DNA of 64,000 nucleotides from an uncultured delta proteobacterium (GCA_963816145.1 CAWFJP010000005.1:320001-384000); one strand, 5' to 3'; counted from the stretch's first letter, positions 16,996 to 36,380 are shown. Program-made: numbers and translations. Notes: generated by a model not told the origin, from the letters alone.

Positions 16996-18630
16996 ATGAT
17001 GGAAGATCTCGTTGAAATCGTCAATCCGTTGGGTGTCCCGCGCAAGCAGGTGAGTAAACTGGCGCCGCGACGATACGACAGCCTGGAGGGCCGGCGGATT
17101 GGATTGCTCGATAACAACAAGCCCAACGCCGACACGTTCTTGCAAATCATCGGCGAATTACTCCGCGCGCGTCATGCCGATATCCAACTCGTTGCCAAAC
17201 GCAAGATGACGCGCATGGAATCGGACGGTCTGGCGCAGTTAGCCGGGGATTGCGATGTCGTCATCAACGCCTTTGCCGATTGAGGTTCGTGCACGTCGTG
17301 GAGTGTCCACGACTCGGTAAAGCTCGAAGGCGCGGGGATTGCCACCGTGACCGTGGTGAGCAGCGAGTTTTGGGCCCTAGCTCTGACAGAGGCGCAGGCG
17401 CGTGGTGTGAAAGATCTGCCGCTGGTCAAAGTGCCGCATCCGGTGGGCACGATAGCGTTTGATGCGCTGCGCTCGGTCGCCGAGTCGGCAGTCGATGCGA
17501 TTGTCAGTAAATTGGTTCGCGGCAATGATTCGGCCTCGTGCGGCGAGGGCATCTCTGCAGAGGCCGGTGAAGGCAGTGCCGCCGCCACGTTGTCCGTTCC
17601 GAGCGATCCCGAAGATTTGTTCAGTTTCTTTTTCGATCGCGGATGGACCGACGGCTTGCCGGTCTTGCCACCGACTTTAGCAGCGGTGCGAAAGATGGTT
17701 GCCGCTGGCGGCAAGAAAGCCGATGTGATTTTGGGCGTCATCCCGCCGCTGAATGGCGTTGCCACCGTTGAAAAGATCGCCGCCAATGCGGTGATGGCAG
17801 GCTGTTTGCCGGACTATTATCCGCTCGTGCTCGCGGCGGTGCGCGCCATCACCCGGCCGGGCTATAACCTTGACGGCTTGCAGACGACCACGGGAAATAT
17901 CGCGCCGCTGGCGATCGTTAACGGGCCTTGCCGCAATCGGTTGGCGATCAACTATGGTGCCAATGTGCTCGGTCAGGGCTGGCGCGCTAACGCCACCATC
18001 GGCCGGGCGATTCGTTTCGTCATGACCAATATCGGCGGTGCTCGGCCCGGCAGCTTCGATAAGTCGACGATGGGCCAGCCGGCGAAATACACTTTTTGTT
18101 TCGCTGAAAACGAAGAAGAGAGTCCGTGGCAACCGTTTCATGTCGAGCGCGGCCTGGCGCGCGATTGCGATACGATACATATGTTCGGCGCCAGCGGCGT
18201 TTACAGCGCCGTCGATATGGCCAGCCAATCGGCCAATGGATTGCTCAAGACTTTCGCGTTGACGATGACCGGCGGCTTGGCGAGCGGCGTGACTTCAACA
18301 GAAGTTCTCTGGGTGATTTGTCCCGAGCACGCGGCTATCCTGGCGCGGGATGGTTTTTCCAAAGAGAAGTTGCGTGTCGAGCTATTCGCTTTTGCACGCG
18401 TGCCCTTCGACAAGATCGCCGATGAAAACTTAGATCTGCTCGCCAAACGGCGACCTGGTTGGTTCAAGTCTGGCGCGGCGCGCGAGATTGGCGTGGTCGA
18501 CCGGCCCGAAGACATCTGGCTCGTGGTCGCCGGTGGCGCGGGCGCCAAGTCGGCATATATTCCGGGGCGGACGGGAACGCGGATGCAAACGGTGGCCGTG
18601 GAGGGACCCGAGTATGCAGTACTGGAGTGA
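16996..18630 (+). CDS. UGSC-motif selenoprotein fused to a conserved uncharacterised domain (Sec at TGA 17281-17283, residue 96; 544 aa)
   Basis: ORFs 16996..17283 and 17347..18630 are in frame with no other stop; read-through gives AFAD-U-GSCTSWSVHD..LEGAGIATV; SECIS-like hairpin follows. Confidence 0.88.
17295..17313 (+). promoter_or_regulatory. Bacterial SECIS-like hairpin
   Basis: GTCGTGGA-GTG-TCCACGAC, perfect 8-bp stem with G-first loop, 11 nt after the TGA. Confidence 0.8.
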
Positions 18631-18637
18631 TGGCAAT

Positions 18638-19630
18638 ATGAGTTGGAATCGGCAAATCGTAATTGTGATGATCTATTTCTGCGTGTGGTTGGTGCCGTCG
18701 CTGGCCGATGCCCAAATCAAGTCGATCATCATCGGCGAAGGGGTGCGCGGCGCGATGTATTTGCCGGCGTACATCGCCGAGGAAAAAGGCTTCTTCAAGC
18801 GGCGTGAATTGGATACCCGCATGGTTACCTTCAGCCGCAGCAACGACATCAATGCCTTGGTGTCGGGAGATATACAGTTCGATCTGACGTCGCCGGACAA
18901 AGTTGTCCATAGCGCCTTGGGCGGATTCCCGGTGAAGATGGTGATGGGCACGGCACGCGGGCTGAACCTCGCCTTGACGGTGCATCCATCGATCCGCACG
19001 GCTACCGATTTGCGTGGCAAGTCGGTGGCGATCACCGGCTTTTCCGGTTTGCCCTATACCGGGCTGCTGCTCTGTTTACGCGAACTCGGCATGACCAAGG
19101 ATCAGGTGGTGCCGCTCAATATCGGCGGCAAGAGCGCGCGCTTCGAGGCCTTACTCGGCAATCGTGTGCCGGCGGCGATCCTCGATCCGCCCTATACAAC
19201 GCTGGCGGCCAAGGAAGGTTACCGCTTGCTAGTGGACTTGGCGCCGTTGGATGTTCCCTATCTGCGCAACATTGTCGCGGTGTCGGAGAAAACGCTGCGC
19301 GACGACAGCCGCACGGTCGCGCGCTTTGTCGCTGGGTTGGCGGAGGGCATGCAGTTTTATCGCAACAAGGTCAACAAAGAAGACAGCATGAAGATTCTGG
19401 CGAAGTATCTACGGCTGCCGTTGGAGAAAAATCGTCCGATGATCGAAGAAGGCTATGAAACCTATCGTGATATGATGCTGAAAAAACCTTACGCGGACCC
19501 CACTGCGATGAAGATTCTGCTGGAGATCATAGCCGAATCGAATCCCAAGGCGAAGTCGGTCAATCTCGCGGCGCTGATCGACTCGTCGTTCGTCGAAGGC
19601 TTGGATCGTGCGGGTATGTTCGACCGTTAG
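18638..19630 (+). CDS. ABC substrate-binding protein, NMT1/SsuA-like
   Basis: Signal peptide from ATG 18638; YIAEEKGFF, DLRGKSVAI; 7 nt after the selenoprotein stop. Confidence 0.85.
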   Translation: MSWNRQIVIVMIYFCVWLVPSLADAQIKSIIIGEGVRGAMYLPAYIAEEKGFFKRRELDTRMVTFSRSNDINALVSGDIQFDLTSPDKVVHSALGGFPVKMVMGTARGLNLALTVHPSIRTATDLRGKSVAITGFSGLPYTGLLLCLRELGMTKDQVVPLNIGGKSARFEALLGNRVPAAILDPPYTTLAAKEGYRLLVDLAPLDVPYLRNIVAVSEKTLRDDSRTVARFVAGLAEGMQFYRNKVNKEDSMKILAKYLRLPLEKNRPMIEEGYETYRDMMLKKPYADPTAMKILLEIIAESNPKAKSVNLAALIDSSFVEGLDRAGMFDR

Positions 19631-19659
19631 CCCAGTTTGGCCACGGCGTTTGGTAATCG

Positions 19660-20559
19660 TTAAAGCGGGTCGTCCTGCAGGCGGCCGATCATGCGGCGCC
19701 AGACATTTTTGTCGGGCTGGGTTTGCGGCTTTTTGATCTCCAATTGGCCCATCATCCGGGTCTTTTCATGCAGCTCGACGCTCAGGTTCTCGCATTCTTG
19801 CGACAGGCGTTTGATCAGTTTGCCGATTTCCGCTTCCTTCGCCGCCGTCGCTTGGATGACGACTTCTTTGTCTTTGAGTTGAATCTCCTGCAGGTGCAAC
19901 TTGGATTCAGCATCCTTTAGACGGGTTTCGAGATCGATGATATTGGCGCGAAAATCTGCTTCGGCCTTTTTGAACATGTTGGCCTTCCCTTGCACCGCTT
20001 CGTCGCGTTGGCTCAGTTGGCTTTTGAGCGCGGCGATTTCTCGGTCGATGTCTGCGGTTTTTTTGGCGACTTCCTGTTCGAGCTGCTGCTCTGTGTAGCC
20101 GGGGGTAACCGGGCGGTTGGCCAGTTCGTTGATCTGGCGGTTCAACGAAGCGATTTCGGTTTCGCGTTCTTCGAGTTTTCGCTCGGTGCTGCGCAGGCGC
20201 TGTTCCAGGATCGCCAACTGGTCGCGCGTATTGTTTTCGAGCATGGTGAAGGCGAGATTGCGCTCCTGGAGCGCCAGGGTGCTTTGCTCGAGTTGATTGC
20301 GCAGAGTCGCGACTTCGGTCTGTCGGCTCTCCTCACTGCGCTGGGCGGTTTCGGTTTGGCGGATCGCCGTCACGCAGGCGCGATCGGCGAGGCTGCTCAA
20401 CTTGCTGATATAGTCGAGCAGCTGATTTGCCTGAGTCTCGATCTCGACCAAGCCGGAGGCATCGTCGAACGACAGATTGGGCATATCGTTTGGCGCTTCT
20501 CCAGCGTCAACTTCCGGTTGGTTGCGAACGATCGACAAGACATTTTCAGTGGCACGCAT
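19660..20559 (-). CDS. Coiled-coil protein of unknown function
   Basis: Long E/Q/K/L heptad-rich sequence; C-terminal VWRRMIGRL. Confidence 0.7.
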   Translation of the reverse strand: MRATENVLSIVRNQPEVDAGEAPNDMPNLSFDDASGLVEIETQANQLLDYISKLSSLADRACVTAIRQTETAQRSEESRQTEVATLRNQLEQSTLALQERNLAFTMLENNTRDQLAILEQRLRSTERKLEERETEIASLNRQINELANRPVTPGYTEQQLEQEVAKKTADIDREIAALKSQLSQRDEAVQGKANMFKKAEADFRANIIDLETRLKDAESKLHLQEIQLKDKEVVIQATAAKEAEIGKLIKRLSQECENLSVELHEKTRMMGQLEIKKPQTQPDKNVWRRMIGRLQDDPL

Positions 20560-20916
20560 TGCAAAATTTCCTCCGTCGATGCTGGCAAGACGGTCGTGGG
20601 AATTTTCAGCAATTTTTATACCACCTGGGGATCACTGGCGGCGATTCATAAATAGTTGAAAAGGCGAGCTTATTTTTAGATTAACAAGGCCGCGGTGGCG
20701 GTTAGCGTCGAAACTTGGACAATTATGGCCATGCTTCGTAAATAAGAGCAATCGAGTCGACGACAACTGGCGAAATCAGTTTCGAGGATCGCCGGGCCGA
20801 TTTTTAGCTACATCAGTGCGGCGAAAAGCAGTCGGTAATTTCCCCGTCGTTGCAGTTCAAGTTCAGCGTTTGAATTGCTACAAAGGAGTCGGTTGGGGGG
20901 GTAGGAAGCGGATCCG

Positions 20917-21532
20917 ATGAAGAAGCGGCAGCGGCGCTGGAGCGGATGGTTGATGGTTATGGGGATTCTTTTCGGATGCGATACGGCGTTTCAAGTCGGC
21001 ACCGCCGTGCAGTCGGGACGCCAAGCGCTGTTGCGTAAAGATCCTGCGCAAGCGGTGCCGCATTTTGAGGAAGCGGCGCGCAAAGATCCCGATTATGTTT
21101 ACCGTTCAGCGCATTTCAGCGAAGGCATCTGGGCCTCTGTCGGCCGCTTGCCAGTACGCCACCGGCAATTTCTCCCAAGCCCAACAATCCCTCAAACTGG
21201 CATTGACCAAAGACAAAGACGATCTTCTGGCCCGGCTGTATCTTGGCCTGACTCTGCTGCGCAACGGTCACGAGAGCCGTGGGCAAACTGAATTGCTAAA
21301 CGCCCGACAAAGTGTGCACGACTGGATCGAAAATATTTTGACCAGCCGTTCGGCGGAAGCTTATTGGGATCCCAATAAGCAGATCCGTTCGGAGATCAAG
21401 AAAACTCTCGAGCATCTGGCAGGGACGAGCAGGGATCGGACGCAGATTTTGACCAATGCCGAATGGCTGGGCGCCGAGGTCGAAGAAGAGATCGAACGGG
21501 TGCGGCGCGAGGAAAGCCAACGCAAAGGCTAA
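20917..21532 (+). pseudogene. TPR lipoprotein interrupted by a +1 frameshift near 21148
   Basis: Lipobox-like ILFG-C; removing one T in CGC-T-TGC joins ..GIWASVGR to CQYATGNFSQAQQSL..ARLYLGLTL. Confidence 0.7.
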
Positions 21533-21662
21533 ATTCGCATGGTTGGATCGAGGGTTTGTCGATTGTTGCTTGTTTTGCGCTTGGAAAATAATGCCGATGC
21601 AGGTAGTCTTAGTTGAATGAGATTCGCACCTGCACCTGGGCATTGTATTTGTTTAAACCCCG

Positions 21663-22745
21663 ATGGCCGGAAATAAGCTAAAAGGGCTGGTCTTAAGCGG
21701 GGGCCGGGGAACTCGGCTGCGCCCGCTCACGCATACCGCGGCAAAACAGCTTGTGCCGGTGGCCAACCGGCCGATACTGTTTCACGTTCTCGACAATTTG
21801 CAAAAAGCCGCAGTCGACGACGTCGGGATCGTGATCTCGCCCGAGACCGGGCCGGCGATCCGCGAAGCGGTGGGCGACGGCAGCGCCTGGGGAATGAAAA
21901 TTTCTTTTATCGAGCAAACCGAACCGCTCGGCCTGGCTCACGCGGTCAAGGTGGCGCGGCCCTATTTGGGCGACGATCCCTTCGTCATGTATCTCGGCGA
22001 TAATCTGATCGGTTCGGGGATCGAAAGTTTTCGCGAGCAATTCGAAAAATCCGGCGCGGTTGCGTCGATCTTGCTCAAGGAAGTCGACAACCCGTCAAGT
22101 TTTGGTATCGCCGAAGTCGACGATCAACAGCGCGTGCTCGGCCTGGTAGAAAAGCCGCGGGAGCCGAAATCAAAATTAGCCTTGGTGGGTATTTATTTTT
22201 TTACTGCGAAGATTCATAGCGCCATCGACCAGATCGTGCCTTCCTGGCGCGGCGAGTTGGAGATCACCGACGCCATTCAACTGCTGCTCAGTCAAGGCGG
22301 CAAAGTGCTGAGCCATCGCATCGATGGTTGGTGGCTCGACACCGGCAAGAAGGACGATCTATTGACCGCCAACACCGTCGTCCTCGATGAGTGGGTGCAG
22401 CGGAAGATTGACGGTGAGATCGATGGCGCCAGCCACGTCACCGGACGTGTGCAGCTCGGCAAAGGCAGCCGTGTCGTCAATAGCACTGTGCGCGGTCCCG
22501 CAGTGATCGGCGATGAGGTGCTCGTCGAGAATTCTTTTGTCGGTCCGTTCACCTCCATCGGCAATGGCTGCCGCATCGTTTCTTCAATGCTGGAACACTG
22601 CTTATTGCTGGAAGGCGCGCGGGTGGAATGTGTGGACCGTCTCGAAGATAGCTTGCTCGGCAAAAACTCCGCTGTGGTGCGCGAGCAAAAGAGACACCAG
22701 GCCTACCGCTTGATGATCGGCGACGATTCCGAAGTGTTGCTCTGA
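21663..22745 (+). CDS. rmlA: Glucose-1-phosphate thymidylyltransferase (long form)
   Basis: LSGGRGTRLRPLT..KQLVPV, YLGDN, EKP, RGELEITDAIQ, WLDTG plus LbH tail. Confidence 0.95.
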   Translation: MAGNKLKGLVLSGGRGTRLRPLTHTAAKQLVPVANRPILFHVLDNLQKAAVDDVGIVISPETGPAIREAVGDGSAWGMKISFIEQTEPLGLAHAVKVARPYLGDDPFVMYLGDNLIGSGIESFREQFEKSGAVASILLKEVDNPSSFGIAEVDDQQRVLGLVEKPREPKSKLALVGIYFFTAKIHSAIDQIVPSWRGELEITDAIQLLLSQGGKVLSHRIDGWWLDTGKKDDLLTANTVVLDEWVQRKIDGEIDGASHVTGRVQLGKGSRVVNSTVRGPAVIGDEVLVENSFVGPFTSIGNGCRIVSSMLEHCLLLEGARVECVDRLEDSLLGKNSAVVREQKRHQAYRLMIGDDSEVLL

Positions 22746-23308
22746 TGCCGTTTACTTTCTCGCCCACTAGAATTGCCGATGTGCTGGTCGTCGAGCCACG
22801 AATTTTTCCCGACGAGCGCGGCTTTTTCATGGAAACCTACAAGCGTTCGGAATTCGCCGCTCACGGAATCGGTGAGCCGTTTGTGCAATGTAATCAGTCA
22901 CGCTCGGCGCGCGGCATCTTGCGCGGTTTGCACTTTCAAAAGCCGCCGAAGGCTCAAGGTAAGCTAGTGCGCGTCATGAGCGGCGCGATCTTCGATGTGG
23001 CGGTCGATTTACGCAAGGGGGCGCCGACCTACGGCCAATGGGTCGGCGTGGAATTGACCGCGGCAAATAATAAGATGCTTTATGCGCCGGCGGGCTTCGC
23101 CCATGGCTTTTGCGTCGTCAGCGCCGAAGCGGATATCGCGTACATGACCAGCGACGAATATGCGCCGTCGCTGGAGTCCGGCATCGCCTGGGACGATGCG
23201 GATCTGAACATCACTTGGCCGGTCACAGTGCCGCAACTATCGGGGCGCGATCGTAAGTGGTCGCGCTTGCGCGACACCGATACGGGATTTGTCTATCGGG
23301 GAAGGTGA
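22745..23308 (+). CDS. rmlC: dTDP-4-dehydrorhamnose 3,5-epimerase
   Basis: DERGFFME, LRGLHFQ, DVAVDLR, GFAHGF. Confidence 0.95.
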   Translation: MPFTFSPTRIADVLVVEPRIFPDERGFFMETYKRSEFAAHGIGEPFVQCNQSRSARGILRGLHFQKPPKAQGKLVRVMSGAIFDVAVDLRKGAPTYGQWVGVELTAANNKMLYAPAGFAHGFCVVSAEADIAYMTSDEYAPSLESGIAWDDADLNITWPVTVPQLSGRDRKWSRLRDTDTGFVYRGR

Positions 23309-23332
23309 GCCCGGTTCGTTTCATTCGAAGAT

Positions 23333-24379
23333 ATGAAAACTATTTTTGTTACCGGCGGTTGCGGTTTCATCGGCAGTAATTTCGTGCGTCTGCTATCGAC
23401 GACCACGGATTACCGCATCGTCAATTTCGACAAGCTGACCTACGCCGGCAATTTGGAGAACGTCGCCGATATCAGCCCAGCGCGCATGCGCTTTGTCCAG
23501 GGCGATATTTGCGACCGCGAGTTCGTCGAGCGCATACTCGCCGAAGAGAAGCCCTGGGCGTTTGTCAACTTTGCCGCGGAGTCGCATGTCGATCGCAGCA
23601 TTCTCGACTCGGCGCCGTTTCTCCAGACCAATATCGGCGGTGTTCAATCGCTGCTCGAAGCCGTGCGGCGGGTGAGCGTCGAACGGTTCCTGCAGATCTC
23701 GACCGACGAAGTCTATGGCGACAAGGAAGGCAAGCCGTCGTCCACCGAAGATTCTCTTTTGGCGCCGAGCAGTCCTTACTCGGCGAGCAAAGCCGCCGCC
23801 GATCTGCTTTGCTTCTCCTATCGGCGCACCTATGGTTTGCCGATTCTGGTGACGCGCAGCTCCAACAACTACGGGCCGTATCAATTTCCCGAGAAACTCA
23901 TCCCGCTGCTCTTGCGCAACGGTCTCGGCGATCTTGATTTTCCTGTCTACGGTGACGGCCAGCAGATTCGCGATTGGATCCATGTCGAAGACAACTGCCG
24001 TGGGTTGTTGGCAGTTTTGGAAAACGGCGAGATCGGATCGATTTATAATATCGGCACGAGCGAAGAGCGCAGTAATCTGGCGGTCGTCGACGCGATCTGT
24101 GCCGCCATCGCGGCGCACAAAGGTGTCGATCTGGACCGACTCACAGCGCGCATTCGTTACGTCGCCGACCGTCCGGGCCATGACCGGCGCTACGCCCTCG
24201 ATACGACCAAGGTGCGTAATGAGCTCGGTTGGGCGCCGCGAGTGGATTTCCCGAGCGGTTTGCAACGGACGGTCGATTGGTATTTGAGTCATGCGGACTG
24301 GGTGGCGCGGGTGACGTCCGGCGAATATCGCCAATACTACGAATCAGTTTACGCCCAGAGCTGGGGCAAGACATCCTAA
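23333..24379 (+). CDS. rmlB: dTDP-glucose 4,6-dehydratase
   Basis: TGGCGFIG, AAESHVDRS, STDEVYG, YSASK, DRPGHDRRY. Confidence 0.95.
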   Translation: MKTIFVTGGCGFIGSNFVRLLSTTTDYRIVNFDKLTYAGNLENVADISPARMRFVQGDICDREFVERILAEEKPWAFVNFAAESHVDRSILDSAPFLQTNIGGVQSLLEAVRRVSVERFLQISTDEVYGDKEGKPSSTEDSLLAPSSPYSASKAAADLLCFSYRRTYGLPILVTRSSNNYGPYQFPEKLIPLLLRNGLGDLDFPVYGDGQQIRDWIHVEDNCRGLLAVLENGEIGSIYNIGTSEERSNLAVVDAICAAIAAHKGVDLDRLTARIRYVADRPGHDRRYALDTTKVRNELGWAPRVDFPSGLQRTVDWYLSHADWVARVTSGEYRQYYESVYAQSWGKTS

Positions 24380-25254: not shown

Positions 25255-25341
25255 GCGGATTTCTTTCGCCGCAAGCCTTTGCGCCGCGGCCGGAGATCAT
25301 GCTAGTAACCTGAATAAATCTATTACCGTGAGGAAACCATC

Positions 25342-27138: not shown

Positions 27139-28188
27139 ATGAAGACATTATTCAGACTCATCGTGTCGTTGATCGTCACCGCTTCCGTTGACGTTTCGGC
27201 CCAGGGGGCCAAGCCGTCGACCCTCGCTGATCTCGTTAAATATCGTGGCGCCGATCGGGAGAAGATTCTTTACGAGGGCGCCAAGCGGGAAGGAAGTTTC
27301 GTTTGGTACACCTCCCTGGTGCCGCATAAGGAGATCAGCAAGGTTTTCATGAGCAAGTATCCCGGTGTCAGCATTGATATCTATCGCGCCGACGGGGTGA
27401 CCCTTGCGAATCGCGCTATGGCCGAGCATCAGGCGCGCCGTCACATTATGGACGCCATCGAAACCACGCCGCCGCCATTGATGCCGCTGCGCGATAACAA
27501 GTTGCTGATGCCGTACTGGTCCCCGCATCTGGCGGCTTATCCCGAAATTGCCAAGGAAAAGGCCGATGGCGATCTGGTGTGGTGGAGCACTGACCGCGAG
27601 TCGTTGATCGGCGTCGGCTACAACAAGAATACATTTCCCGCCGCCGATCTGCCGAAGCGTTTCGACGACCTGCTCAAGCCGGCGTTGAAGGGCAAAATGG
27701 GGGTGGCGAACAACGAGACCGGCGCCCGCGCCCTCGGCGGCATCATCAAGGCCAAGGGAGAGGAATTTGTCCGGCGGCTCAAAGATCAAGAAGCGCGCCC
27801 GCACGCGACAAGTGCCGCGGGGTTGGCCGATCTGATCATTCGTGGCGAGGTGCCGATCTCCTTTACCATGGTGCAAACCAATTTGACGCAGCCCGCTGCC
27901 ACGCGCGGCGCACCGGTGGGCTGGGTGCCGATGGAGGTCGTGCCGGTCAATGCCGGCGGCGCCGCGATTTCGGCCAATGCGGCCCATCCCCATGCGGCAT
28001 TGTTGTTCATCGATTTTCTGCTTGGTCCGGAAGGCCAGAAGATGTATGCCGACAAACTTTTCTATACCAGCGCGACGAGAAAAGTCAGCTATGAGAAATG
28101 GTATCCCGATAAAGGATTGACCACGGCGGAGTACGAAGAACGGGCCGACAAGTGGCTGAAGCTCCTGCGCGAGATTACCCGAAAGTAG
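27139..28188 (+). CDS. Extracellular solute-binding protein (Fe3+/thiamine-type)
   Basis: GAKREGSFVWYTS, GYN, DLLKPALKGK, AAHPHAALLFIDF. Confidence 0.85.
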   Translation: MKTLFRLIVSLIVTASVDVSAQGAKPSTLADLVKYRGADREKILYEGAKREGSFVWYTSLVPHKEISKVFMSKYPGVSIDIYRADGVTLANRAMAEHQARRHIMDAIETTPPPLMPLRDNKLLMPYWSPHLAAYPEIAKEKADGDLVWWSTDRESLIGVGYNKNTFPAADLPKRFDDLLKPALKGKMGVANNETGARALGGIIKAKGEEFVRRLKDQEARPHATSAAGLADLIIRGEVPISFTMVQTNLTQPAATRGAPVGWVPMEVVPVNAGGAAISANAAHPHAALLFIDFLLGPEGQKMYADKLFYTSATRKVSYEKWYPDKGLTTAEYEERADKWLKLLREITRK

Positions 28189-28436: not shown

Positions 28437-28499
28437 ATGGCTGCAAAAATCGACTGCATGACCTGCCGGAAACGGCCGAGAAAAAAGACGCGGAAATAG
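28437..28499 (+). CDS. Putative 20-aa small protein MAAKIDCMTCRKRPRKKTRK
   Basis: AGGGGAGGG RBS 4 nt before ATG, TTGACG upstream at 28381, terminator downstream; CxxC plus basic tail. Confidence 0.5.
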   Translation: MAAKIDCMTCRKRPRKKTRK

Positions 28500-28509
28500 T
28501 GGATTGATA

Positions 28510-28536
28510 ATCGAGGATAGAGGATCGAAGATCGAA
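28510..28536. repeat. 7-nt periodic ATCGAGG/ATCGAAG repeat
   Basis: ATCGAGG ATAGAGG ATCGAAG ATCGAA; partial inverse at 28613-28624. Confidence 0.7.
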
Positions 28537-28564
28537 AAACTCTCCGTTACCAATACCAAAAACA

Positions 28565-28601
28565 AAAAAGGGCCTGCGATAAACAACGCAGGCCCTTTTT
28601 T
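28565..28601. terminator. Bidirectional intrinsic terminator
   Basis: AAAAAAGGGCCTGCG-loop-CGCAGGCCCTTTTTT. Confidence 0.85.
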
Positions 28602-28624
28602 GTTTAACGGGTGATCTTCTCGAT

Positions 28625-29461
28625 TTAGAAGAAAGCCAACGTCCGCATCTCGATGCTTTCGCGCGGCGGCACATTGGGCGGGGCCGTCGGGTCGTCAAAG
28701 GCGCAGTGGGCGGTCCAGCGGGCCCGGCCGTCTTTGAGCGAGTCGTAGCACTTGAACACCATGGCCTCGTTGCGCTGCATGTTGGGAAAGTAGCACCAGC
28801 GATGCGCCGGGTTATGGGTCATGTGGTAGACCTCGCCGCGCCGGTTCGGGTAAATGCGCGCGCTCGGGATCAGTTCACTGGTTCCAATGGACTGGGCGTC
28901 GGCGATGGCGAGATGGTCGTTTTGCACCGGCTGGTTGATCGGCCGCCAGGTTTGCACCACGGCGAAGCGCCGGCTGATGAGTTCTTCGGCTTCATCTGGC
29001 AGCAACTCGCGCACCCGCTGCGGTCCCGACCACTCCGTGTAGTCATTGTGCGCGTTGCGTACCGGGCTGCTTACCTGATTGGCCTCGCGGATGGCGCTGT
29101 CCGCGGCGCGCAACGTGTGATCGAACACCAGCACCCGTTTGGCGCCGGAGATTTGCTTTACCAGTTCCTCGGTTTCGTTGTAATAGATCGAGCGCACTTC
29201 ATCTTCGTCGTAGAAATTTTTCACCTGGGTGTCGTGACGGACGAGGACGAACCCCTCGCGCTCCAGTGACAGCCGATCGGCGATGTCCCGGCCATTGTAG
29301 ATCGGCATCTTGAACTCGGCGTACTTGCCCTTGCGCTTTTGGTCCGCTACCTCTTGCCGGACCCCGCCATAGCTCTCGGGTGTTTCGCTAGTATCGACGA
29401 GATAGTTCAAAATCGCTTCAAATGCCGGCGCGGGCTCGTTGATTTGTTCGGCTCGTGACAT
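28625..29461 (-). CDS. CmcJ/NvfI/AsaB-family Fe(II)/2-oxoglutarate-type oxidoreductase
   Basis: VFDHTLR, AHNDYT (HxD), WRP, FKCYDS, AHCAF, RESIEMR. Confidence 0.85.
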   Translation of the reverse strand: MSRAEQINEPAPAFEAILNYLVDTSETPESYGGVRQEVADQKRKGKYAEFKMPIYNGRDIADRLSLEREGFVLVRHDTQVKNFYDEDEVRSIYYNETEELVKQISGAKRVLVFDHTLRAADSAIREANQVSSPVRNAHNDYTEWSGPQRVRELLPDEAEELISRRFAVVQTWRPINQPVQNDHLAIADAQSIGTSELIPSARIYPNRRGEVYHMTHNPAHRWCYFPNMQRNEAMVFKCYDSLKDGRARWTAHCAFDDPTAPPNVPPRESIEMRTLAFF

Positions 29462-29493
29462 AAGCGGTTTCCTTTGGGGGTAATCGAACAATG

Positions 29494-29578
29494 GTTCACC
29501 ACGAAGGCACGAAGGACACGAAGGTTTCGAACGATCTAACTTCCGAACTTCGCGCTTTTCGTGTCCTTCGTGGTGAAC
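29494..29578. repeat. Palindromic CACGAAG element (same family as 1405-1487)
   Basis: GTTCACCACGAAG...TTCCGAACTTCG...CTTCGTGGTGAAC. Confidence 0.9.
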
Positions 29579-29608
29579 ATGTCTTGGTCTTCGTGGCGCT
29601 GGCTATTC

Positions 29609-30247
29609 CTACTTCGGCATCATCTCGCAGGGTGTCTGCCTAGGGCCGAGGCTTTCGTAGTAGTCGTTGGTCTCCGGATTGTACCGGCCCTGGTTGAAGT
29701 CGCCGCCTTTTTGACTACGGATGATCACCGCCACGGTGCGTTCGCCGACGGTGAGCTCGGTGTGGATTTCATATGGCTTTACCAGATCGATGTCGCCCGG
29801 CCCGCAGAGCACGTTGCTCGATTCCTTGATCTGGGCAAAGTTGGGCTTGGAGCGGTCGTCGAGCCGGTCGTAGCGCACAACTTTTTCTCGGCCATCAATG
29901 ACGCCATAAAGCGTGTAGATATGCGCGTGATCGTGAATCCGCGCCGGCGCGCCCTGGCGCGCTTGGCCTTTGGTCAGGCCGTTGATGGCGAAGCCGTAGT
30001 CGGGGTCCTCGTAGAAAAGCAGGTTCTCGGCGCGGCCGTTGGCGGGCACGCAATCGGGCCAGGTCTTCGAGGCGGCGACCATATCGGGATCGGCCAAGAG
30101 TTCGGCTAAGATCGGCCGCAGGCCATTCCAGCGTTTGTCGAGATCGGCTTCCTTGGCGAACAGCTCGCGGGTCTTTCGGATGAAACGATCTTTAGCATTT
30201 TCGCTGCTCGTTTGTCTCGTCGTGGTGGTTGCAGTTTGGGTTTCCAT
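29609..30247 (-). CDS. Cysteine/thiol dioxygenase-like cupin
   Basis: IHDH...YG...G.E...RY...IH 3-His pattern; start ATG 30247 after AGGAGG. Confidence 0.75.
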   Translation of the reverse strand: METQTATTTTRQTSSENAKDRFIRKTRELFAKEADLDKRWNGLRPILAELLADPDMVAASKTWPDCVPANGRAENLLFYEDPDYGFAINGLTKGQARQGAPARIHDHAHIYTLYGVIDGREKVVRYDRLDDRSKPNFAQIKESSNVLCGPGDIDLVKPYEIHTELTVGERTVAVIIRSQKGGDFNQGRYNPETNDYYESLGPRQTPCEMMPK

Positions 30248-30260
30248 GTTTCCTCCTGGT

Positions 30261-31433
30261 CTAGGGTTGGAGTTGTGGTTGCGGGTTTGAGGTTGAGCTG
30301 CTGCGCGATTCATATTCCCCCGCACCGTAGAAGCGCGCGCAGTTGTCCCAAAGGATCTTGCGCTTGTCGTCGTCGGAAAGTTTCAACTCAAGAAAGCTCT
30401 TGACGGCGTTGGGATACTTCGAGTCACCATGCGGATAGTCGGTGGAGAATACCAACTGATCGCAACCGAACTCTTCGATCGTGTAGCGTGCCGGCGCTTC
30501 ATCGGGCTCGATGGAGATCCAGCATTGGCGTTTGAAATACTCGCTGGGCGGCATCTTCAAATCCGACATGAAGACATCGCCTTCACGCTCGTAGCCTTCG
30601 TCCAGCCGCCATAACAGCCAGGGCAGCCAGGAACAGTTGGCTTCAAGAAAGGCGACGCGCATCTTGGGATGACGTTCCAAAATACCTCCGCCCAAGAAAG
30701 CGCCCATGCCCATCATCTGCTCGAACGGTTGGGCATAAACGCGGCGCAGACCGAAGTTGGGTTCGAAATGTTCCGCCGCCTGGCGCGAGCGCGATGCCGA
30801 AGCTTCGTGGAAGCCCAACGGCAAATTCAATTCTTCGAGCAATTCCCAGAGCGGCTCGTAGTGCGGGTCATACCAGTTCTTGCCGTTGATGATGTTGGAG
30901 CGCAGGAACACCGAGCGAAAACCATACTCTTCTTTGACCCGGCGGGTTTCGCGCAAAGCATCGTCGAGATCGTAGACCGAGATCATGCCGGCGCCGAGGA
31001 GCCGCTCGGGATCGGCGGAGCAAAAGTCATGCAGCCAATCGTTGTAGGCGCGCGCCATGGCGTCAGCGAAGCGCGGATCTTGGTCGGGGAAGGTGAGTAT
31101 GCCCAGTCCGCGAGTCGGGAACAGCACCGCGGTGTCGATGCCTTCGGTGTCCATCGCTTCCAACTGCACGTGACCGGTCCAGCCGCGCTCGGCGTGGCTG
31201 CGATAGATCTCCTGATTCTTATTGAAGTTGCTGCCGCGGTGCGGTGTGCCACCGGTGCGCCGGGTGTCTTTGGGCACTTTAGGAAAGATCGTGCCGAGAT
31301 CGCGGACGTTGTCCGAGGTCCGGCCGCGCGGCGCCTGATCGCGAAATTTGGGATCAATATAGCGCTCCCAAAGATCGGGCGGCTCCATGATATGCATGTC
31401 GCTGTCGAAAACTTTGAATCCATTTTTCGCCAT
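30261..31433 (-). CDS. Amidohydrolase-2 family protein
   Basis: FDSDMH, RAYNDW, LGFHE, LEANCSW, FSTDYPH; start ATG 31433. Confidence 0.9.
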   Translation of the reverse strand: MAKNGFKVFDSDMHIMEPPDLWERYIDPKFRDQAPRGRTSDNVRDLGTIFPKVPKDTRRTGGTPHRGSNFNKNQEIYRSHAERGWTGHVQLEAMDTEGIDTAVLFPTRGLGILTFPDQDPRFADAMARAYNDWLHDFCSADPERLLGAGMISVYDLDDALRETRRVKEEYGFRSVFLRSNIINGKNWYDPHYEPLWELLEELNLPLGFHEASASRSRQAAEHFEPNFGLRRVYAQPFEQMMGMGAFLGGGILERHPKMRVAFLEANCSWLPWLLWRLDEGYEREGDVFMSDLKMPPSEYFKRQCWISIEPDEAPARYTIEEFGCDQLVFSTDYPHGDSKYPNAVKSFLELKLSDDDKRKILWDNCARFYGAGEYESRSSSTSNPQPQLQP

Positions 31434-31454
31434 GGTTCCCCCTTTGATTTGCCG

Positions 31455-31484
31455 AGCGTAATGCCGAGTTAGGGGAGATGTCAA
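31455..31484 (-). promoter_or_regulatory. sigma70-type promoter
   Basis: TTGACA-18-TACGCT on the minus strand. Confidence 0.55.
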
Positions 31485-31544
31485 GCAATGTTTACTTTGA
31501 GTTGTCGGCGGGTTGGATCGCCGCTCCAGCGCGCAGATTCGGCG

Positions 31545-31571
31545 GAGATTTCTCGCTGCCCTCGAAATGAC
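31545..31571. repeat. GTCAT-type REP half element
   Basis: GAGATTTCTCGCTGCCCTCGAAATGAC, similar to 14369-14395 and 62714-62741. Confidence 0.65.
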
Positions 31572-31626
31572 TATTGATGATGAATTGACCATGTCACAGT
31601 TTGCGGTCTTTCAAGTGTCGCTAACG

Positions 31627-32502
31627 TCACGGCATGTTAACGCCGGTAGGAGCGAAGTACTCTGAGCCCGTTGTGCGGGATGCACCCCATGGCAGTTCGA
31701 GCTGGTTGCCCTCAGGAAAGAGAACTTGCGCCGTCCCTTCAATGCGCTCGCCACGCACTTTGCCGCTGAATTCATGACGGGTTAGGCCGATGCCTTCCAA
31801 CGTCATGACGAGGTTGAACGAGATGTTCTCGCCGTTGAGCTTCATGTCGCTCAGCACTTCACGGTTGGCGCCGGCGCGGACGACGCCTTCGGCGCTTTGG
31901 AATTGCTGTTCCAACACCGCGGCGTAGGCGATGCGCTGGCCGGCGAGGTTAAACTCCCAGCTCCAGTTGCCGGCAATGCGCGCCGGCACGATCCAGAGGT
32001 AGCTGGTCGGGCTGCCGCTGTCAGTGGCGTCGGCGGGCCAGGTGCCGAGATCCCAGGTGCTGGTTAAGACGCGCGTGCCAGGGCGCGCGCGTTCGAGAAT
32101 GATCGGTCTTAGCAGCCGCAAGAGTTCCGGAAATAGCCACATGGTGACTACCGTAGCCTCGCGGAGGTCGGCGTCGAAGGCGTTCTGATGAATAAACTTG
32201 ACGCGGTCAGCGACGCCCTGGGCCATGGCGATGCCATTGGATTCGGCGATCAGCTTCGCGTCGATATCGACGCCCCAGCCGCGCACTTTCGCATTCATTT
32301 TCGCCGCGGTGAGGACAATGAGTCCATCGCCCGAGCCGAGGTCCGCCACCACGTCGTCGTCGCGCAGGTTGGCGAGCTTGAGCATGCGCTCGGCACTTTC
32401 GGGCGTGCTCGCTTGGAAGAACGAAAAGCGCTCTTGGGCCGGCGCGCCGGCGGCGGCACAAAGCATGATGCCGAAAATCAGTTTGCGGGTTAATTCAATC
32501 AT
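31627..32502 (-). CDS. Class I SAM-dependent methyltransferase with signal peptide and C-terminal beta domain
   Basis: VADLGSGDG, GVDID, ATVVTMWL, PGTRV. Confidence 0.85.
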   Translation of the reverse strand: MIELTRKLIFGIMLCAAAGAPAQERFSFFQASTPESAERMLKLANLRDDDVVADLGSGDGLIVLTAAKMNAKVRGWGVDIDAKLIAESNGIAMAQGVADRVKFIHQNAFDADLREATVVTMWLFPELLRLLRPIILERARPGTRVLTSTWDLGTWPADATDSGSPTSYLWIVPARIAGNWSWEFNLAGQRIAYAAVLEQQFQSAEGVVRAGANREVLSDMKLNGENISFNLVMTLEGIGLTRHEFSGKVRGERIEGTAQVLFPEGNQLELPWGASRTTGSEYFAPTGVNMP

Positions 32503-32523
32503 GCATTCTCCGTTGCTATTCTC

Positions 32524-32584
32524 GTACGGGCGACCCCCCCGTGGTCACCATCTCCGGCGGACAGGCACGGGGGCCGGCCCCTCC
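32524..32584. repeat. Degenerate GTAG-type REP doublet
   Basis: GTACGGGCGACCCCCCCGTGGTCACC ... GGACAGGCACGGGGGCCGGCCCCTCC. Confidence 0.5.
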
Positions 32585-32703
32585 GCGGAATAGTTATTGA
32601 ATTTACAAACAAGCACGCCCTTTCTCTGCGGTCAATTGACAAGCGCTCTTTGCCCAATTACATCTCGTACAGTCGAGGGATATCTAACGGAATGCCGGGA
32701 GCT

Positions 32704-33690
32704 ATGAGCATGACTGTTCGAACATTGGTCGGTATCGCCATTCTGGTTTTGCTCAGTTCGGTCGACCTGAGCGCGCAAAGCCGCAAGGTGCGGGTGGCGA
32801 TGCCGGGCTACACCATCGCCGGGATTTCATTTCTTACCGCGAAGGTCAACGGCTACTACGCCGCCGAGGGCTTGGATGTGGAGCTGATCGCCATGCGCGC
32901 GCCGACGGCGAATCTCGCCGTGCTGAGCAGCAGCGTGGAGTTCTCCACGGTGCCTTTGGCTGGATTGAATACGGCGCTGCGCGGCGGCGCATTGAAGATC
33001 GTCATGGTCCACTTCGACAAGCCGCAGCATGTGTTGTTTGTCAAGAATGACCTGCAAAATCTAAAACTCTTGCGCGGCAAAAAAGTCGCCGTGTCCGGGC
33101 CGGGAGTGATCGACGACTTGCTGTTGCGTGAAGTGCTGGGAAATAACGGCATCGATGCCAACAAAGAGCTGGCTATTCTCAGCATGGGTTCGGCGGATAC
33201 CCGGGTGACCAGCTTGATCAGTGGCGCGGTGGACGGAGCGATGATCATCGCTCCGCATACTTTTACCGCCAAGGACGCGGGCTTTCGCGAATTGGTGGTG
33301 TTTCGCGACCAGGGTTTGCTCTTGCCGAGCGGCGGTATCGCGGCACGGGACGAAACACTGAAAAACGATCCGGGTTTGGTGGAGCGCTTCACGCGCGCGT
33401 CGATGATGGGGTTCATCCACTCGCGCGATAACCGCGCCGGCGCGATCCGGGTTCTTAGCAAGACGTTAAGGATCGACGAGACGATCGCCGCGAAAGTATA
33501 CGATTCGTCGCGACCGACGATGACGGCCGACGGCACGCTCAGTGACGATGCACAAAAGAAAATGGCTGCTTTTGTCGCTAAGTCTGCCGGCCTTAAAGAA
33601 ATCATAGCGGCGGACAAGGCCTTCGATTTCTCGTTTGTACGCAAGGCTAACGCTGCGTTGCACACCAAAGGCTGGCAGCCGCTGCCGTGA
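32704..33690 (+). CDS. ABC substrate-binding protein, NMT1/SsuA-like
   Basis: Signal peptide; AKVNGYYAAEGLDVELI, LRGKKVAVS; TTGACA-17-TACATC at 32636-32664 favours a start near 32704. Confidence 0.85.
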   Translation: MSMTVRTLVGIAILVLLSSVDLSAQSRKVRVAMPGYTIAGISFLTAKVNGYYAAEGLDVELIAMRAPTANLAVLSSSVEFSTVPLAGLNTALRGGALKIVMVHFDKPQHVLFVKNDLQNLKLLRGKKVAVSGPGVIDDLLLREVLGNNGIDANKELAILSMGSADTRVTSLISGAVDGAMIIAPHTFTAKDAGFRELVVFRDQGLLLPSGGIAARDETLKNDPGLVERFTRASMMGFIHSRDNRAGAIRVLSKTLRIDETIAAKVYDSSRPTMTADGTLSDDAQKKMAAFVAKSAGLKEIIAADKAFDFSFVRKANAALHTKGWQPLP

Positions 33691-33691
33691 A

Positions 33692-33721
33692 TTGACAACA
33701 GCGCTCCAGCGGCACTAAGGT
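33692..33721 (+). promoter_or_regulatory. sigma70-type promoter for the grdE/grdB-like pair
   Basis: TTGACA-18-TAAGGT. Confidence 0.5.
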
Positions 33722-33739
33722 CTTCTGTGAAAGAGCATT

Positions 33740-35014
33740 ATGCAACTGACACTGGCCTATCACCCGGTTAGCTCGATTCGCTTCGGCGCTAAATTGAATT
33801 TGGACGGCACGGTGCTGACGGTTAGCCAAGACGAATTGCGCGCCATTGTTCTCGAAGACTCGCTGATCGAAGCGGTGGACTTCGCCCTCGCCGCGCCCAA
33901 CGACAGCCTGCGCGCCGGGCCGGTGTTCGATATCGTCGAGCCGCGCGCCAAGGCGGCGGTCGGCAGCCCGGACTGGCCGGGGATTCTCGGTGCGCCGCAG
34001 ACCGCCGGCAGCGGCACTACGCATGTGCTGTCCGGTGCGGCAGTGACCATGCTGCGTGAGGACTCTTCCGGTGATTCGCGCGGCGCCACTGGTTACGTCC
34101 TCGAAATGAGCGGCGCGCCGGCGGCGGGCTCGCATTACGGCACGCTGCGGCATTTGATCGTCGTACCGCGTACTCGGCCGAATATTCCGGCGGCCGCGCG
34201 TCAGCGCGCTTACCGTTTAGCGCAATTGAAAATGGCTGTGCGACTGGCACAGGCGGCTTTTTCTGTCGTACCGGCGCGATCCGAAGTCCTCGATAACGCG
34301 GATGCCGAGCCGCGCGCCGGCTTGCCGCGGCTGGCTTACATTGGTCAAATCTTTTCACGTCAGCGCAAACCGGAAGCCGATGAGCATATACTTTACGGCA
34401 CTGACACCGACGGCATGCTGCCGACCCTCCTCCATCCCAACGAGTGGCTCGACGGCGCGTTGGTGCCGTCGTACCACGCGTCAATCGGTGGCGCAGAAAC
34501 CTATTTTTATCAAAATCATCCAGTGATTCTCGAACTCTACCGGCGCCATCGCGCGGGTGAAATAAATTTCATCGGCTCGGTGGCGACGATAGCCTCGGCC
34601 AATAATTTCGACCGCGAACGCAACACGCGCTTTGCGGCCAATCTTACTAAATGGGCACTGCGCGCTGATGCCGCAGTGCTGACCAAGTTCGGCGGCGGCG
34701 TGCCGCACACGGATTTGTCGGAGACCGCGCGCGTACTCGAAACCATGGGTGTCAAGACCGCCGTGCAGGTTACGGATCTCGCGCGCGACCACCGGATCGA
34801 GTCGGCGCTATTGTTCAACTTCCCCGAGGTCGACGCCATCGTCTGCATCGGCGGCAACGACACCCACTGGAAGCTGCCGCAGGTCGAGCGCGTGATCGCG
34901 GCCAGCAGCGGCCTGGCGGAGTTGCTCGCCGGCCCGTTGGAGATCGACTCGCTCAATGTGATCGGCGTCGCCAACCAGCAAGGGGCGTCGCGATTGAAGT
35001 CGGTGGTGTATTAA
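33740..35014 (+). CDS. Glycine/sarcosine/betaine reductase component B non-Sec subunit (GrdE/GrdG/GrdI-like)
   Basis: DIVEPRAK, AGSGTTHVLSG, PTLLHPNEWLDGA, TY.YQNHP.I.ELY, DAIV..GN; adjacent to grdB-like gene. Confidence 0.85.
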   Translation: MQLTLAYHPVSSIRFGAKLNLDGTVLTVSQDELRAIVLEDSLIEAVDFALAAPNDSLRAGPVFDIVEPRAKAAVGSPDWPGILGAPQTAGSGTTHVLSGAAVTMLREDSSGDSRGATGYVLEMSGAPAAGSHYGTLRHLIVVPRTRPNIPAAARQRAYRLAQLKMAVRLAQAAFSVVPARSEVLDNADAEPRAGLPRLAYIGQIFSRQRKPEADEHILYGTDTDGMLPTLLHPNEWLDGALVPSYHASIGGAETYFYQNHPVILELYRRHRAGEINFIGSVATIASANNFDRERNTRFAANLTKWALRADAAVLTKFGGGVPHTDLSETARVLETMGVKTAVQVTDLARDHRIESALLFNFPEVDAIVCIGGNDTHWKLPQVERVIAASSGLAELLAGPLEIDSLNVIGVANQQGASRLKSVVY

Positions 35015-35018
35015 GAGG

Positions 35019-35091
35019 GCGTGAGGCCTGAGACGCGAGGCTTGAGTAAATCCGGAATCCGAACTCATGTCTCAAGCCTCGCGCCTCAGGC
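35019..35091. repeat. Palindromic 7-nt periodic GCxTGAG/CTCAxGC element
   Basis: GCGTGAG GCCTGAG ACGCGAG GCTTGAG ... CTCATGT CTCAAGC CTCGCGC CTCAGGC. Confidence 0.85.
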
Positions 35092-35108
35092 GTACTTAGG
35101 AGTTTGTC

Positions 35109-36380
35109 ATGCGTGTCGTACATTACGTCAATCAATTTTTCGGTGGGCTCGGCGGTGAAGAACACGCAGGAAATGCGCTTGAAATTCGCGATGGTGCGGT
35201 GGGGCCGGGCAAGTTGCTGGAACAACTCTTTGGCAACGACTGCCAAGTGGTGATGACGTTGGTCTGCGGCGATAACTACGCTGTGGAGAATCTGGAGGCG
35301 TTGACGGCCGCTGTATTGGAAAAAATTCGCGCTGCCCAGGCCGATCTGTTTGTCGCCGGGCCATGCTTTCTAGCGGGGCGATACGGCCTGGCGGCGGGGG
35401 CGCTGTGCGCGGCCGCGCAGGCGACATTGAAAATTCCCGTCATCACCGCCATGGCGGCGGAGAATCCCGGCGCCGATCTCTACCGCGAGTTCATGTATAT
35501 CGTCGACTCCGGTGACAATAGCGCTAAGATGCGCGAGGTGTTGACGCGAATGGCGGCCATGGCACAGAAGCTCATGCGTCATGAGATCATCGGCAGCCCC
35601 AAGGATGAAGGCTATCTCGTGCGCGGATTGATCCGCGATGAATTTGTCGAGCTATCCGCCGGCCAGCGCTTGGTCGATATGGTGCTCAAGAAAGTGCGCG
35701 GCGAGCCCTTCGAGAGCGAAATGAGTCCGACCACCTTCGCGCCGGTACCGAAGCCGCCGGCGATCGCCGATCTGACAAAAGCCAAGGTGATGCTGGTTAC
35801 CGACGGCGGGCTGGTGCCGAAGGGCAATCCAGACAAGATCCAGGGCTCGGCGGCGACTCGCTGGGGCGTGTACAGTGTCAAAGGTTGCCAAGATTTGGAT
35901 GGCGCCGACTACGAGATCTCCCACGGCGGCTATGATCCGCAGTTCGTGCGCCAGGATCCGGATCGGCTGGTGCCGCTGGATGTCATGCGCGAACTGGAAC
36001 GGGAGGGCGTCATCGGCGAGTTGCACGAAGAGTTTATTTCCACTTCGGGTCTGTCTAATCCATTGTCGAACACCCGGCGCATGGGACGGGAGATGGCAGC
36101 CAAGGCGAAGCAGCTGGGCATCGACGCGATCATTCTGACTTCAACGTGAGGCACCAGCACTCGCAGCGGCGCTGCGATCACTACGGAATTGGAAAAGGCC
36201 GGTATTCCCACGGTGCAGATTACCGCCGCGTTGCCCGTGGCGAAGATGGTCGGCGCCAATCGGTTGGTGCTCGGCAATGGTATCGTCCATGTGGTGGGCG
36301 ATGCCAAGGTATCGAAAGAGGACGAAAAGAAGCTGCGGCGCCGCTTGGTGGAGCAGGCTCTCGCGGCGATGCAAAAGTAA
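35109..36380 (+). CDS. grdB: Glycine/betaine/sarcosine reductase family selenoprotein B (Sec at TGA 36147-36149, residue 347; 423 aa)
   Basis: MRVVHYVNQFFGGLGGEE, AGP.F.AGRYG, VP.GNPD, HGGYD, DPDRLVPLD, ILTST-U-GT; in-frame continuation to TAA 36380. Confidence 0.92.
36161..36177 (+). promoter_or_regulatory. Bacterial SECIS-like hairpin
   Basis: TCGCAGC-GGC-GCTGCGA, perfect 7-bp stem with G-first loop, 11 nt after the TGA. Confidence 0.82.

Follow-up and report, generated by a model that had tools for sequence, protein, structure and literature searches.

Two groups of selenocysteine (Sec, U)-containing proteins are the closest described relatives of the genes considered here. The first is the UGSC family, which has no known function and has been grouped in print with thioredoxin-fold proteins. 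In Zhang and Gladyshev (2008; PMC2398784), UGSC-containing proteins account for 255 sequences from 37 Global Ocean Sampling (GOS) samples and are placed among the most numerous ocean and freshwater selenoproteins, and the Figure S1A legend of that paper names a fusion of UGSC with a domain termed 'Unknown_1'. The second is the GrdB/PrdB group, in which GrdB carries the canonical motif UxxCxxC according to a 2026 review (PMC13188914). No statement on a relationship between UGSC and GrdB was encountered in the literature searched, although Pfam clan and InterPro texts, which lay outside that search, may record such a link. Here we describe a 64,000-nt stretch of DNA, referred to throughout as the window, from an uncultured delta proteobacterium (GCA_963816145.1 CAWFJP010000005.1:320001-384000). 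When TGA is read as Sec, two long open frames appear in the window, one encoding a UGSC/Unknown_1 fusion (gene 1) and the other a GrdB-family selenoprotein B (gene 2). We consider it likely that both genes are real selenoproteins and that they carry Sec in the same ancestral module. The elements on which this reading depends, in window coordinates, are the following, where SECIS denotes the selenocysteine insertion sequence.

16996..18630, + strand: gene 1, an open reading frame (ORF) with TGA read through, encoding a 544-aa selenoprotein composed of a UGSC domain and an Unknown_1 domain
17014..17517, + strand: UGSC domain, residues 7-174, alternating beta/alpha, with Sec96 opening helix 97-112
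17281..17283, + strand: Sec codon TGA (U96) of the U-G-S-C motif, with Cys in aligned Cys-form homologs
17295..17313, + strand: SECIS hairpin of gene 1, 8-bp stem GTCGTGGA/TCCACGAC, loop GTG, beginning 11 nt after the TGA
17578..18627, + strand: Unknown_1 partner domain, residues ~195-544 (350 aa), with no Pfam or NCBIfam family and no PDB relative
35109..36380, + strand: gene 2, encoding a 423-aa GrdB-family selenoprotein B (TIGR01918, 480 bits against a cut-off of 65.45)
36147..36149, + strand: Sec codon TGA (U347), motif U-G-T-S-T-R-S, in frame in ORF 35109-36380
36161..36177, + strand: SECIS hairpin of gene 2, 7-bp stem TCGCAGC/GCTGCGA, loop GGC, beginning 11 nt after the TGA

Both genes belong to annotated families and are ordinary members of them; relative to the literature searched, the novelty lies in the link between these families. 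Gene 1, whose stop is assumed to be the terminal TGA at 18628-18630, passes the cut-off of NF041046 (137.1 bits, cut-off 125) and scores 157.1 bits against PF24696 (cut-off 25; E 6e-46). Its product reads ...DVVINAFAD-U-GSCTSWSVHDSVKLEGAGIATV around U96 and has the features by which the UGSC family is recognized, namely U96-G-S-C99, an in-frame TGA, and a SECIS hairpin downstream. Cys-form homologs spanning the full protein are 528-582 aa long. The gene 2 product, which reads ...DAIILTST-U-GTSTRSGAAITTELEKAGIPTV around U347, aligns through residues 2-422 with positions 1-421 of TIGR01918 and carries Sec at the family position, and it scores under all substrate-specific cut-offs: GrdB (TIGR01917) 443.2/602.2, GrdF 483.8/800, GrdH 433.7/775, and PrdB 87.7/300. 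Judged by these models, gene 2 is a GrdB-family selenoprotein B to which the equivalog models assign no substrate class. The genome (7.8 Mb, 31 contigs, denoted C with a number below) encodes SelB, a tRNA-Sec, and a single grdA that also contains an in-frame TGA, along with four UGSC, six GrdB-family, and two PrdB-like genes, each with one in-frame TGA.

An earlier inspection of the window, hereafter the sequence-only reading, had claimed that both selenoproteins share an ungapped Sec motif preceded by a hydrophobic strand, and both observations hold. The 23-residue stretches of genes 1 and 2 align without gaps and are identical at 10 of 23 positions as counted by eye (U, G, T5, L15, E16, A18, G19, I20, T22, and V23), and BLASTP of the two domains recovers the same region with 16/55 identical residues (E 4e-4, as a single comparison). 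The hydrophobic stretches before Sec are beta-strands in the AlphaFold models, at residues 88-94 in gene 1 and 340-345 in gene 2. The motifs of the two families also interconvert, with bridges in both directions: GrdB paralogs on C27 and C29 contain U-G-S-C and U-G-T-C, respectively, and the UGSC-family Cys forms P0162 and P0192 contain C-G-T-S-T, resembling the U-G-T-S-T of gene 2.

Profile-profile comparison carries the similarity well beyond the motif. Alignments were made of 44 UGSC domains, drawn from fused as well as stand-alone proteins and from Sec as well as Cys forms, of 10 full-length GrdB-family proteins with TGA read as Sec, and of 26 PrdB-like proteins, and were compared by hhalign. 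UGSC matches GrdB with a probability of 95.2% (P 2.7e-8) over 97 columns that start at the helix preceding the Sec strand and end with the final helix, and the match rises to 95.9% (P 5.8e-9) against the GrdB C-domain and to 96.7% (P 4.5e-10) when the C-terminal half of UGSC is compared with the last ~105 aa of GrdB. Against PrdB-like proteins UGSC reaches 82% (P 1.1e-5), and the positive control, PrdB-like against GrdB, gives 99.9% (P 2.3e-31). After masking of the five motif columns on both sides, UGSC still matches GrdB at 82% (P 1.1e-5). Reversed profiles and 20 column shuffles score at most 0.4%, the GrdB N-domain, which is likewise flavodoxin-like, scores 0.4% (P 0.17), and the SBP (solute-binding protein) and amidohydrolase families of the genome score at most 26% over short stretches. 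The similarity of UGSC to the GrdB/PrdB Sec-domain superfamily over the Sec region is thus both significant and specific relative to controls. The profile comparison is in agreement with three independent lines of evidence. In a search of 26,372 ORFs and 13 read-through selenoproteins of the genome with a UGSC hidden Markov model (HMM), the six GrdB paralogs (E 0.005-0.96) are the next hits below the UGSC genes themselves and fragments of their ORFs. In scans with curated models, 8 of 12 UGSC proteins, Cys forms included, have TIGR01917 (GrdB) as their second-best NCBIfam family (E 1.4e-4 to 0.12), always at model positions ~331-414, and PF24696 matches three of seven GrdB C-halves (E 9.8e-5, 0.003, and 0.019). 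The motif bridges are the third line. Together, these results give good support to the view that the UGSC domain is a distant homolog of the Sec-bearing domain of GrdB and PrdB. The sequence-only reading had inferred this homology and suggested a profile-profile comparison as its check; the comparison was run and came out significant.

The AlphaFold models of the fusion (pLDDT 91.4, pTM 0.91) and of the gene 2 product (pLDDT 91.8) are consistent with this assignment. In the UGSC model, strand 88-94 is followed by U96, helix 97-112, strand 116-122, helix 123-135, strand 143-146, and helix 155-173; in the GrdB model, strand 340-345 is followed by U347, helix 348-363, strand 368-372, helix 375-380, strand 385-388, and helix 403-422. 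Compared by element order, the succession of strand, Sec, helix, strand, helix, strand, and helix is common to both, and Sec appears to lie at an equivalent structural position in the two models. Fold searches do not discriminate further, since the UGSC fold is generic flavodoxin-like and the same structures match the GrdB N-domain. Matches to the UGSC domain took up both structure lists for the fusion model, and matches to the N-domain took up the list for GrdB, with Unknown_1 and the GrdB C-domain barely covered. Searched by sequence, the PDB holds no relative of either protein, of the combined GrdB and PrdB profile, or of the Unknown_1 profile. Foldseek on the fusion returned azoreductases at a low TM of ~0.45. 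It also returned class I fumarate hydratase with E 1.4e-4 but a TM of 0.33 and a root-mean-square deviation of 17 Å, a match that we do not consider meaningful.

Both mRNAs display the arrangement described in the sequence-only reading, in which the TGA is followed by 11 nt and by a 7-8 bp stem with a 3-nt loop that begins with G. The spacer between the TGA and the hairpin is GGTTCGTGCAC in gene 1 and GGCACCAGCAC in gene 2. The folding energies are unremarkable for GC-rich DNA (z -1.28 for gene 1 and -0.61 for gene 2), with 26/200 and 51/200 shuffles, respectively, folding as well; the hairpins are credible because of their position and covariation. Among the 12 UGSC, GrdB, and PrdB-like Sec genes, 11 contain a 7-9 bp stem and a 3-nt G-first loop starting 18-19 nt after the TGA, which corresponds to a spacer of 9-11 nt as extended by the scan. 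When open-frame TGAs are scanned genome-wide, such hairpins peak at loop distances 18-19 (15 and 8 hits; 2-9 in other bins), and the peak is absent when the same scan is performed after TGG, TGC, or TCA. Among 29 distinct UGSC Sec genes from the phylum, the hairpin pairs in 75.9% of cells, compared with 18-46% when the partners are slid; 27 double-sided changes occur, and 0/500 shuffles reach this level. In one such case, a Trp codon in the 5' arm has become Cys, and a synonymous substitution in a Val codon of the 3' arm matches it. On this evidence the SECIS hairpins are genuine. A control on Cys-form hairpins was too small to be read (four stop-free homolog loci, three without Cys, and one Cys form with a 5-bp stem). 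At the gathering score, Rfam yields no SECIS match in the whole window; SECIS_4 appears below threshold at 36150-36187 (12.8 bits against 38, E 3.3), and no SECIS-like match appears at 17230-17380.

The suggestion that the TGA-N11-hairpin pattern be used to find further selenoproteins succeeded in part. The pattern recovers the 11 genes above, leaves grdA unmatched, and misses the fourth UGSC gene (UGSC4) because the hairpin of the latter differs and lies nearer the TGA. UGSC4 is a 560-aa fusion at C8:25892-27448 (+) with the motif U-S-T-C and a different, GC-rich hairpin, and its contig also carries a GrdE-like/GrdB-like pair ~20 kb away. The grdA gene, in its minimum-free-energy fold, has a long imperfect hairpin after the Sec codon rather than the compact type with a 3-nt loop; it encodes C-F-V-U-T-A-A-G, is present in a single copy at C2:212428-212859 (+), and lies on a contig other than those of all six GrdB-like genes. 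The scan also returned 12 further open-frame TGAs with a 7-11 bp stem and a 3-nt G-first loop at distance 18-19, such as C12:77461 (-), C30:526159 (+), and C29:368314 (-), whose flanking translations do not resemble conserved proteins by eye.

The identical geometry of the two hairpins is explained by SelB, which needs the hairpin at a fixed distance from the UGA. In E. coli fdhF, work by Liu et al. in 1998 is said to have arrived at a minimal upper stem-loop with a fixed 11-nt spacing from the UGA. The geometry shared by genes 1 and 2 fits this spacing rule and does not count as independent evidence that they are related. Furthermore, the hairpin lies within the coding sequence of the helix that follows Sec, and for this reason it co-evolves with that helix.

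The remainder of gene 1 encodes Unknown_1. Searched against a library of representatives at 50% identity, the whole gene 1 protein matches 5867 proteins at E<=1e-3, including Cys-form fusions of ~530-565 aa and stand-alone forms of ~340-360 aa that consist of the C-terminal domain alone. For the plain stretch after the Sec codon, the protein-atlas clusters are unnamed or automatically named. The UGSC family occurs in 34 of 301 genomes of the phylum, in a search that scored up to four candidates per genome, and every one of the 19 listed UGSC-only matches has an Unknown_1-only match within ~1.2 kb on the same strand, in either order. The genome studied here follows the same rule, with two fused units (C5, C8) and two adjacent pairs (C3, C9). 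The pairing of UGSC with Unknown_1 is obligate, by fusion or adjacency. In 34 fused homologs, N332 and R337 of Unknown_1 are invariant and D219, T227, T299, and E371 near-invariant, and these residues are kept even in members with a decayed UGSC motif. Two cysteines, C270 and C368, are well conserved, with Cys270 replaced in 7/34. PF09338 has no match in the gene 1 protein. The sequence-only reading had proposed that UGSC and its partner together form a reductase of the glycine/proline type, and this part of it is not supported: no similarity of the partner to GrdE/PrdA (0.1-0.4% by hhalign), to a Pfam family, or to a PDB sequence was detected. Unknown_1 thus appears not to be GrdE/PrdA-like, and the description 'glycine/proline-type reductase' would hold for the Sec module only.

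The genes that adjoin the two selenoprotein genes are the following.

18638..19630, + strand: SBP gene, NMT1/SsuA-type, just 3' of gene 1 (PF09084, E 3.4e-18)
32650..33690, + strand: SBP gene, NMT1/SsuA-type, 5' of the GrdE-like/GrdB-like pair (PF09084, E 8.1e-18)
33740..35014, + strand: GrdE-like 'component B subunits' gene, partner of gene 2 (PF09338, 243 bits)

The 5' end of the first SBP gene is approximate, PF09084 and TIGR01728 having been scanned on 18680-19630, and its TIGR01728 score of 65.9 bits is under the cut-off of 163.5. That each version sits beside its own SBP, as the sequence-only reading had pointed out, is correct for both units in the window, and an SBP lies within ~190 nt of three of four UGSC units and three of six GrdB units. 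Support for this pairing is weak, given that the genome contains 409 NMT1/SsuA-type SBP ORFs (one per ~19 kb) and that 13-16% of random gene-sized segments have an SBP within 100 bp. The adjacency is modestly enriched. The SBP genes, with ~150 Amidohydro_2 ORFs, belong to a very large paralog expansion, further members of which lie in the window at 14564-15664, 27139-28188, 30261-31592, and 37908-38951. The gene upstream of gene 1, at 15839-16948 (+), encodes a NadA (quinolinate synthase) homolog with an N-terminal extension of ~50 aa and a score of 290.9 against an NCBIfam cut-off of 294; an Amidohydro_2 gene flanks it on the other side. This homolog is the sole NadA match in the genome by phmmer and may simply be a housekeeping gene.

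A GrdE-like neighbour is found at all six GrdB paralogs of the genome. The one in the window scores far under the GrdG and FarE equivalog cut-offs. Among seven aligned GrdE-like paralogs, Cys follows H-P-N-E-x-x-D-G-A in just one, and one paralog has V-S-G-N-Y. We take the stretch after H-P-N-E-x-x-D-G-A to be the self-cleavage Cys site of canonical GrdE/PrdA proproteins, and the GrdE-like paralogs of this genome may be uncleaved, non-pyruvoyl forms.

Several results weigh against a common Sec module or against the mechanism proposed for it below. Within the UGSC domain, demonstrable kinship is limited to the C-terminal ~100 residues; the N-terminal half, compared with the equivalent GrdB stretch, gives 1.6-2.9% (P 0.015-0.03), with the first strand aligned at a level that is not significant. 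Single-model HMM cross-hits are weak and fall under every curated cut-off: PF24696 matches none of five PrdB-like proteins, nor the C-half of the gene 2 GrdB, and at E<=10 the UGSC HMM finds neither of the genome's two PrdB-like proteins. Generic structures (CheY-like, B12-binding, and lobes of periplasmic binding proteins) match the UGSC domain and also the sequence-unrelated GrdB N-domain. Several members of the family have neither Cys nor Sec and yet keep the Unknown_1 invariants. As to mechanism, Unknown_1 scores only 0.1-0.4% by hhalign against the seven GrdE-like paralogs, and across 16 loci of other genomes no conserved neighbour names a substrate.

The first alternative accepts the homology and goes further, proposing that the UGSC unit is an enzyme of the glycine/proline-reductase type, in which Unknown_1 takes the role of GrdE/PrdA, holding substrate through a pyruvoyl or carbonyl group, and the adjacent SBP imports that substrate. 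The homologous Sec module agrees with this proposal, as does the obligate two-module unit, which recalls GrdB with GrdE and PrdB with PrdA. The SBP within ~150 nt of three of four UGSC units, against the base rate given above, and the TRAP, TTT, or ABC uptake components within 4 kb at 4 of 16 loci of other genomes would also be expected. However, the neighbourhoods vary, the same 16 loci containing binding proteins or permeases of these types (4), DUF6282 (2), or AhpC/Redoxin (3). No GrdA/GrdC/GrdD-type gene was noted next to a UGSC gene, and the only grdA is located on another contig. Unknown_1 also lacks detectable similarity to GrdE-like proteins by hhalign and has no invariant residue comparable to the self-cleavage Cys/Ser, given the replacements of Cys270 noted above. 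We regard this alternative as unlikely.

The second alternative is convergence, whereby a generic beta-alpha-beta unit whose helix bears a redox motif at its N-terminus, subject to the coding constraints of a SECIS element, came to resemble GrdB and PrdB with no shared ancestry. It draws on the generic fold, with the same PDB classes matching the UGSC domain and the GrdB N-domain, on the non-significant N-terminal half and the weak HMM cross-hits, and on the position of both hairpins in the codons of the helix after Sec. Convergence on a motif or on hairpin codons would not readily account for a signal that persists when the motif is masked and that continues for ~60 residues past the hairpin codons, taking in both the H-P-x-G strand and the final helix. 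Moreover, Cys-form UGSC proteins, which are free of SECIS, match the GrdB model best (P0005, E 1.4e-4), the flavodoxin-like GrdB N-domain scores 0.4%, and the six GrdB paralogs outrank the other 26,372 ORFs. Convergence seems unlikely.

The reading in print, that UGSC is a thioredoxin-fold thiol-disulfide oxidoreductase acting on cysteines of the partner domain, has in its favour the U-x-x-C motif, the well-conserved C270 and C368 of Unknown_1, atlas clusters of Unknown_1 automatically named, for example, 'thiol-disulfide oxidoreductase', and the place of UGSC in the 2026 review, in a list ending in peroxiredoxin-, thioredoxin-, and glutaredoxin-like proteins with a thioredoxin-like fold (PMC13188914), but it is very improbable given an AlphaFold model (pLDDT 91) that is strictly alternating beta/alpha, GrdB rather than thioredoxin as the nearest sequence family, and no thioredoxin-fold title among the matches listed (50 per fusion-model structure list), which are flavodoxin/Rossmann-like, though absence from such a list does not exclude a fold. 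A redox role of UGSC would be compatible with the model, which appears to contradict the fold assignment alone.

Under the favoured reading, in which both genes carry Sec in one ancestral module, the module would consist of a beta-strand followed by U/C-G-(S/T)-(C/S)-T at the first helix turn. Next would come a strand matching L-E-x-x-G-(I/V)-P-(T/V)-V, another helix, a short strand that closes with H-P-x-G, and the last helix. As the C-terminal Sec domain of GrdB and PrdB, the module would work with the GrdE/PrdA subunit, and UGSC-family proteins would carry it as a small domain of ~170 aa coupled to a different partner, the 350-aa Unknown_1. The invariant Asn and Arg and the near-invariant Asp, Glu, and Thr of Unknown_1 suggest a polar, probably carboxylate-binding site, and the UGSC module may act on a substrate bound at that site, serving as selenol nucleophile or redox centre. 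Turnover would then end in a Se-S bond with Cys99, which would be re-reduced by a thiol system, in analogy to the action of PrdB minus the pyruvoyl subunit. We infer this mechanism only, and a partner that is not GrdE-like speaks against it. More tentatively still, UGSC and Unknown_1 might constitute an unrecognized third branch of the Stickland-type selenoenzyme lineage, in which the Sec module of GrdB/PrdB was taken out of its pyruvoyl-dependent context and joined to an unrelated substrate-binding domain, giving a widespread, cofactor-independent selenol/thiol enzyme that would rearrange or reductively cleave a small acid imported into the cell. This extension is possible, though we hold it doubtful.

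To the description of the UGSC family this analysis adds the link to GrdB/PrdB, a model that is flavodoxin-like rather than thioredoxin-like, and an obligate association with Unknown_1, whichever of the two genes comes first. Placing the UGSC Sec module beside GrdB/PrdB gives the family its first functional lead and a frame for experiments, with a selenol nucleophile, a resolving Cys, and a partner-bound substrate. The constant association with Unknown_1 marks the partner domain as the place to seek that substrate.

Compared with known systems, gene 1 has no feature that sets it apart from the UGSC family (NF041046, PF24696), and it shares both the U-G-S-C motif and the 'Unknown_1' fusion with the UGSC-containing protein of Zhang and Gladyshev. 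Gene 2 has the full length, the family position of Sec, and the GrdE-like neighbour in common with the selenoprotein B family (TIGR01918), and differs from canonical GrdB in its motif, since U-G-T-S-T-R-S has Ser at both Cys positions of UxxCxxC. The closest paralog of gene 2 likewise reads U-G-T-S-T-R-S. In other GrdB paralogs or relatives one Cys or both are retained (UGSCSRG, UGTCSRS, UGSSTRC, UGTCTRC), and it is unusual for a selenoprotein B to have no resolving Cys nearby. As with the E. coli fdhF SECIS, both hairpins of the window start 11 nt after the UGA and have G in the apical loop; unlike it, they have a very small loop of 3 nt, no bulged U, and no Rfam gathering match. With the selenoprotein B family, UGSC has ~100 residues around Sec in common, whereas it lacks the GrdB N-domain and an insert of ~100 aa, and its partner is not GrdE/PrdA. 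A further point of comparison is provided by the short PrdB-like selenoproteins (~245-300 aa, U-P/G-x-C), which occur in many genomes of the phylum. The two in this genome, at C4:264228-264575 (-) and C14:205250-205654 (+), are 265 and 293 aa as called and contain U-P-F-C and U-P-Q-C. These proteins have the Sec module and the compact SECIS geometry in common with UGSC, from which they are more distant (82%).

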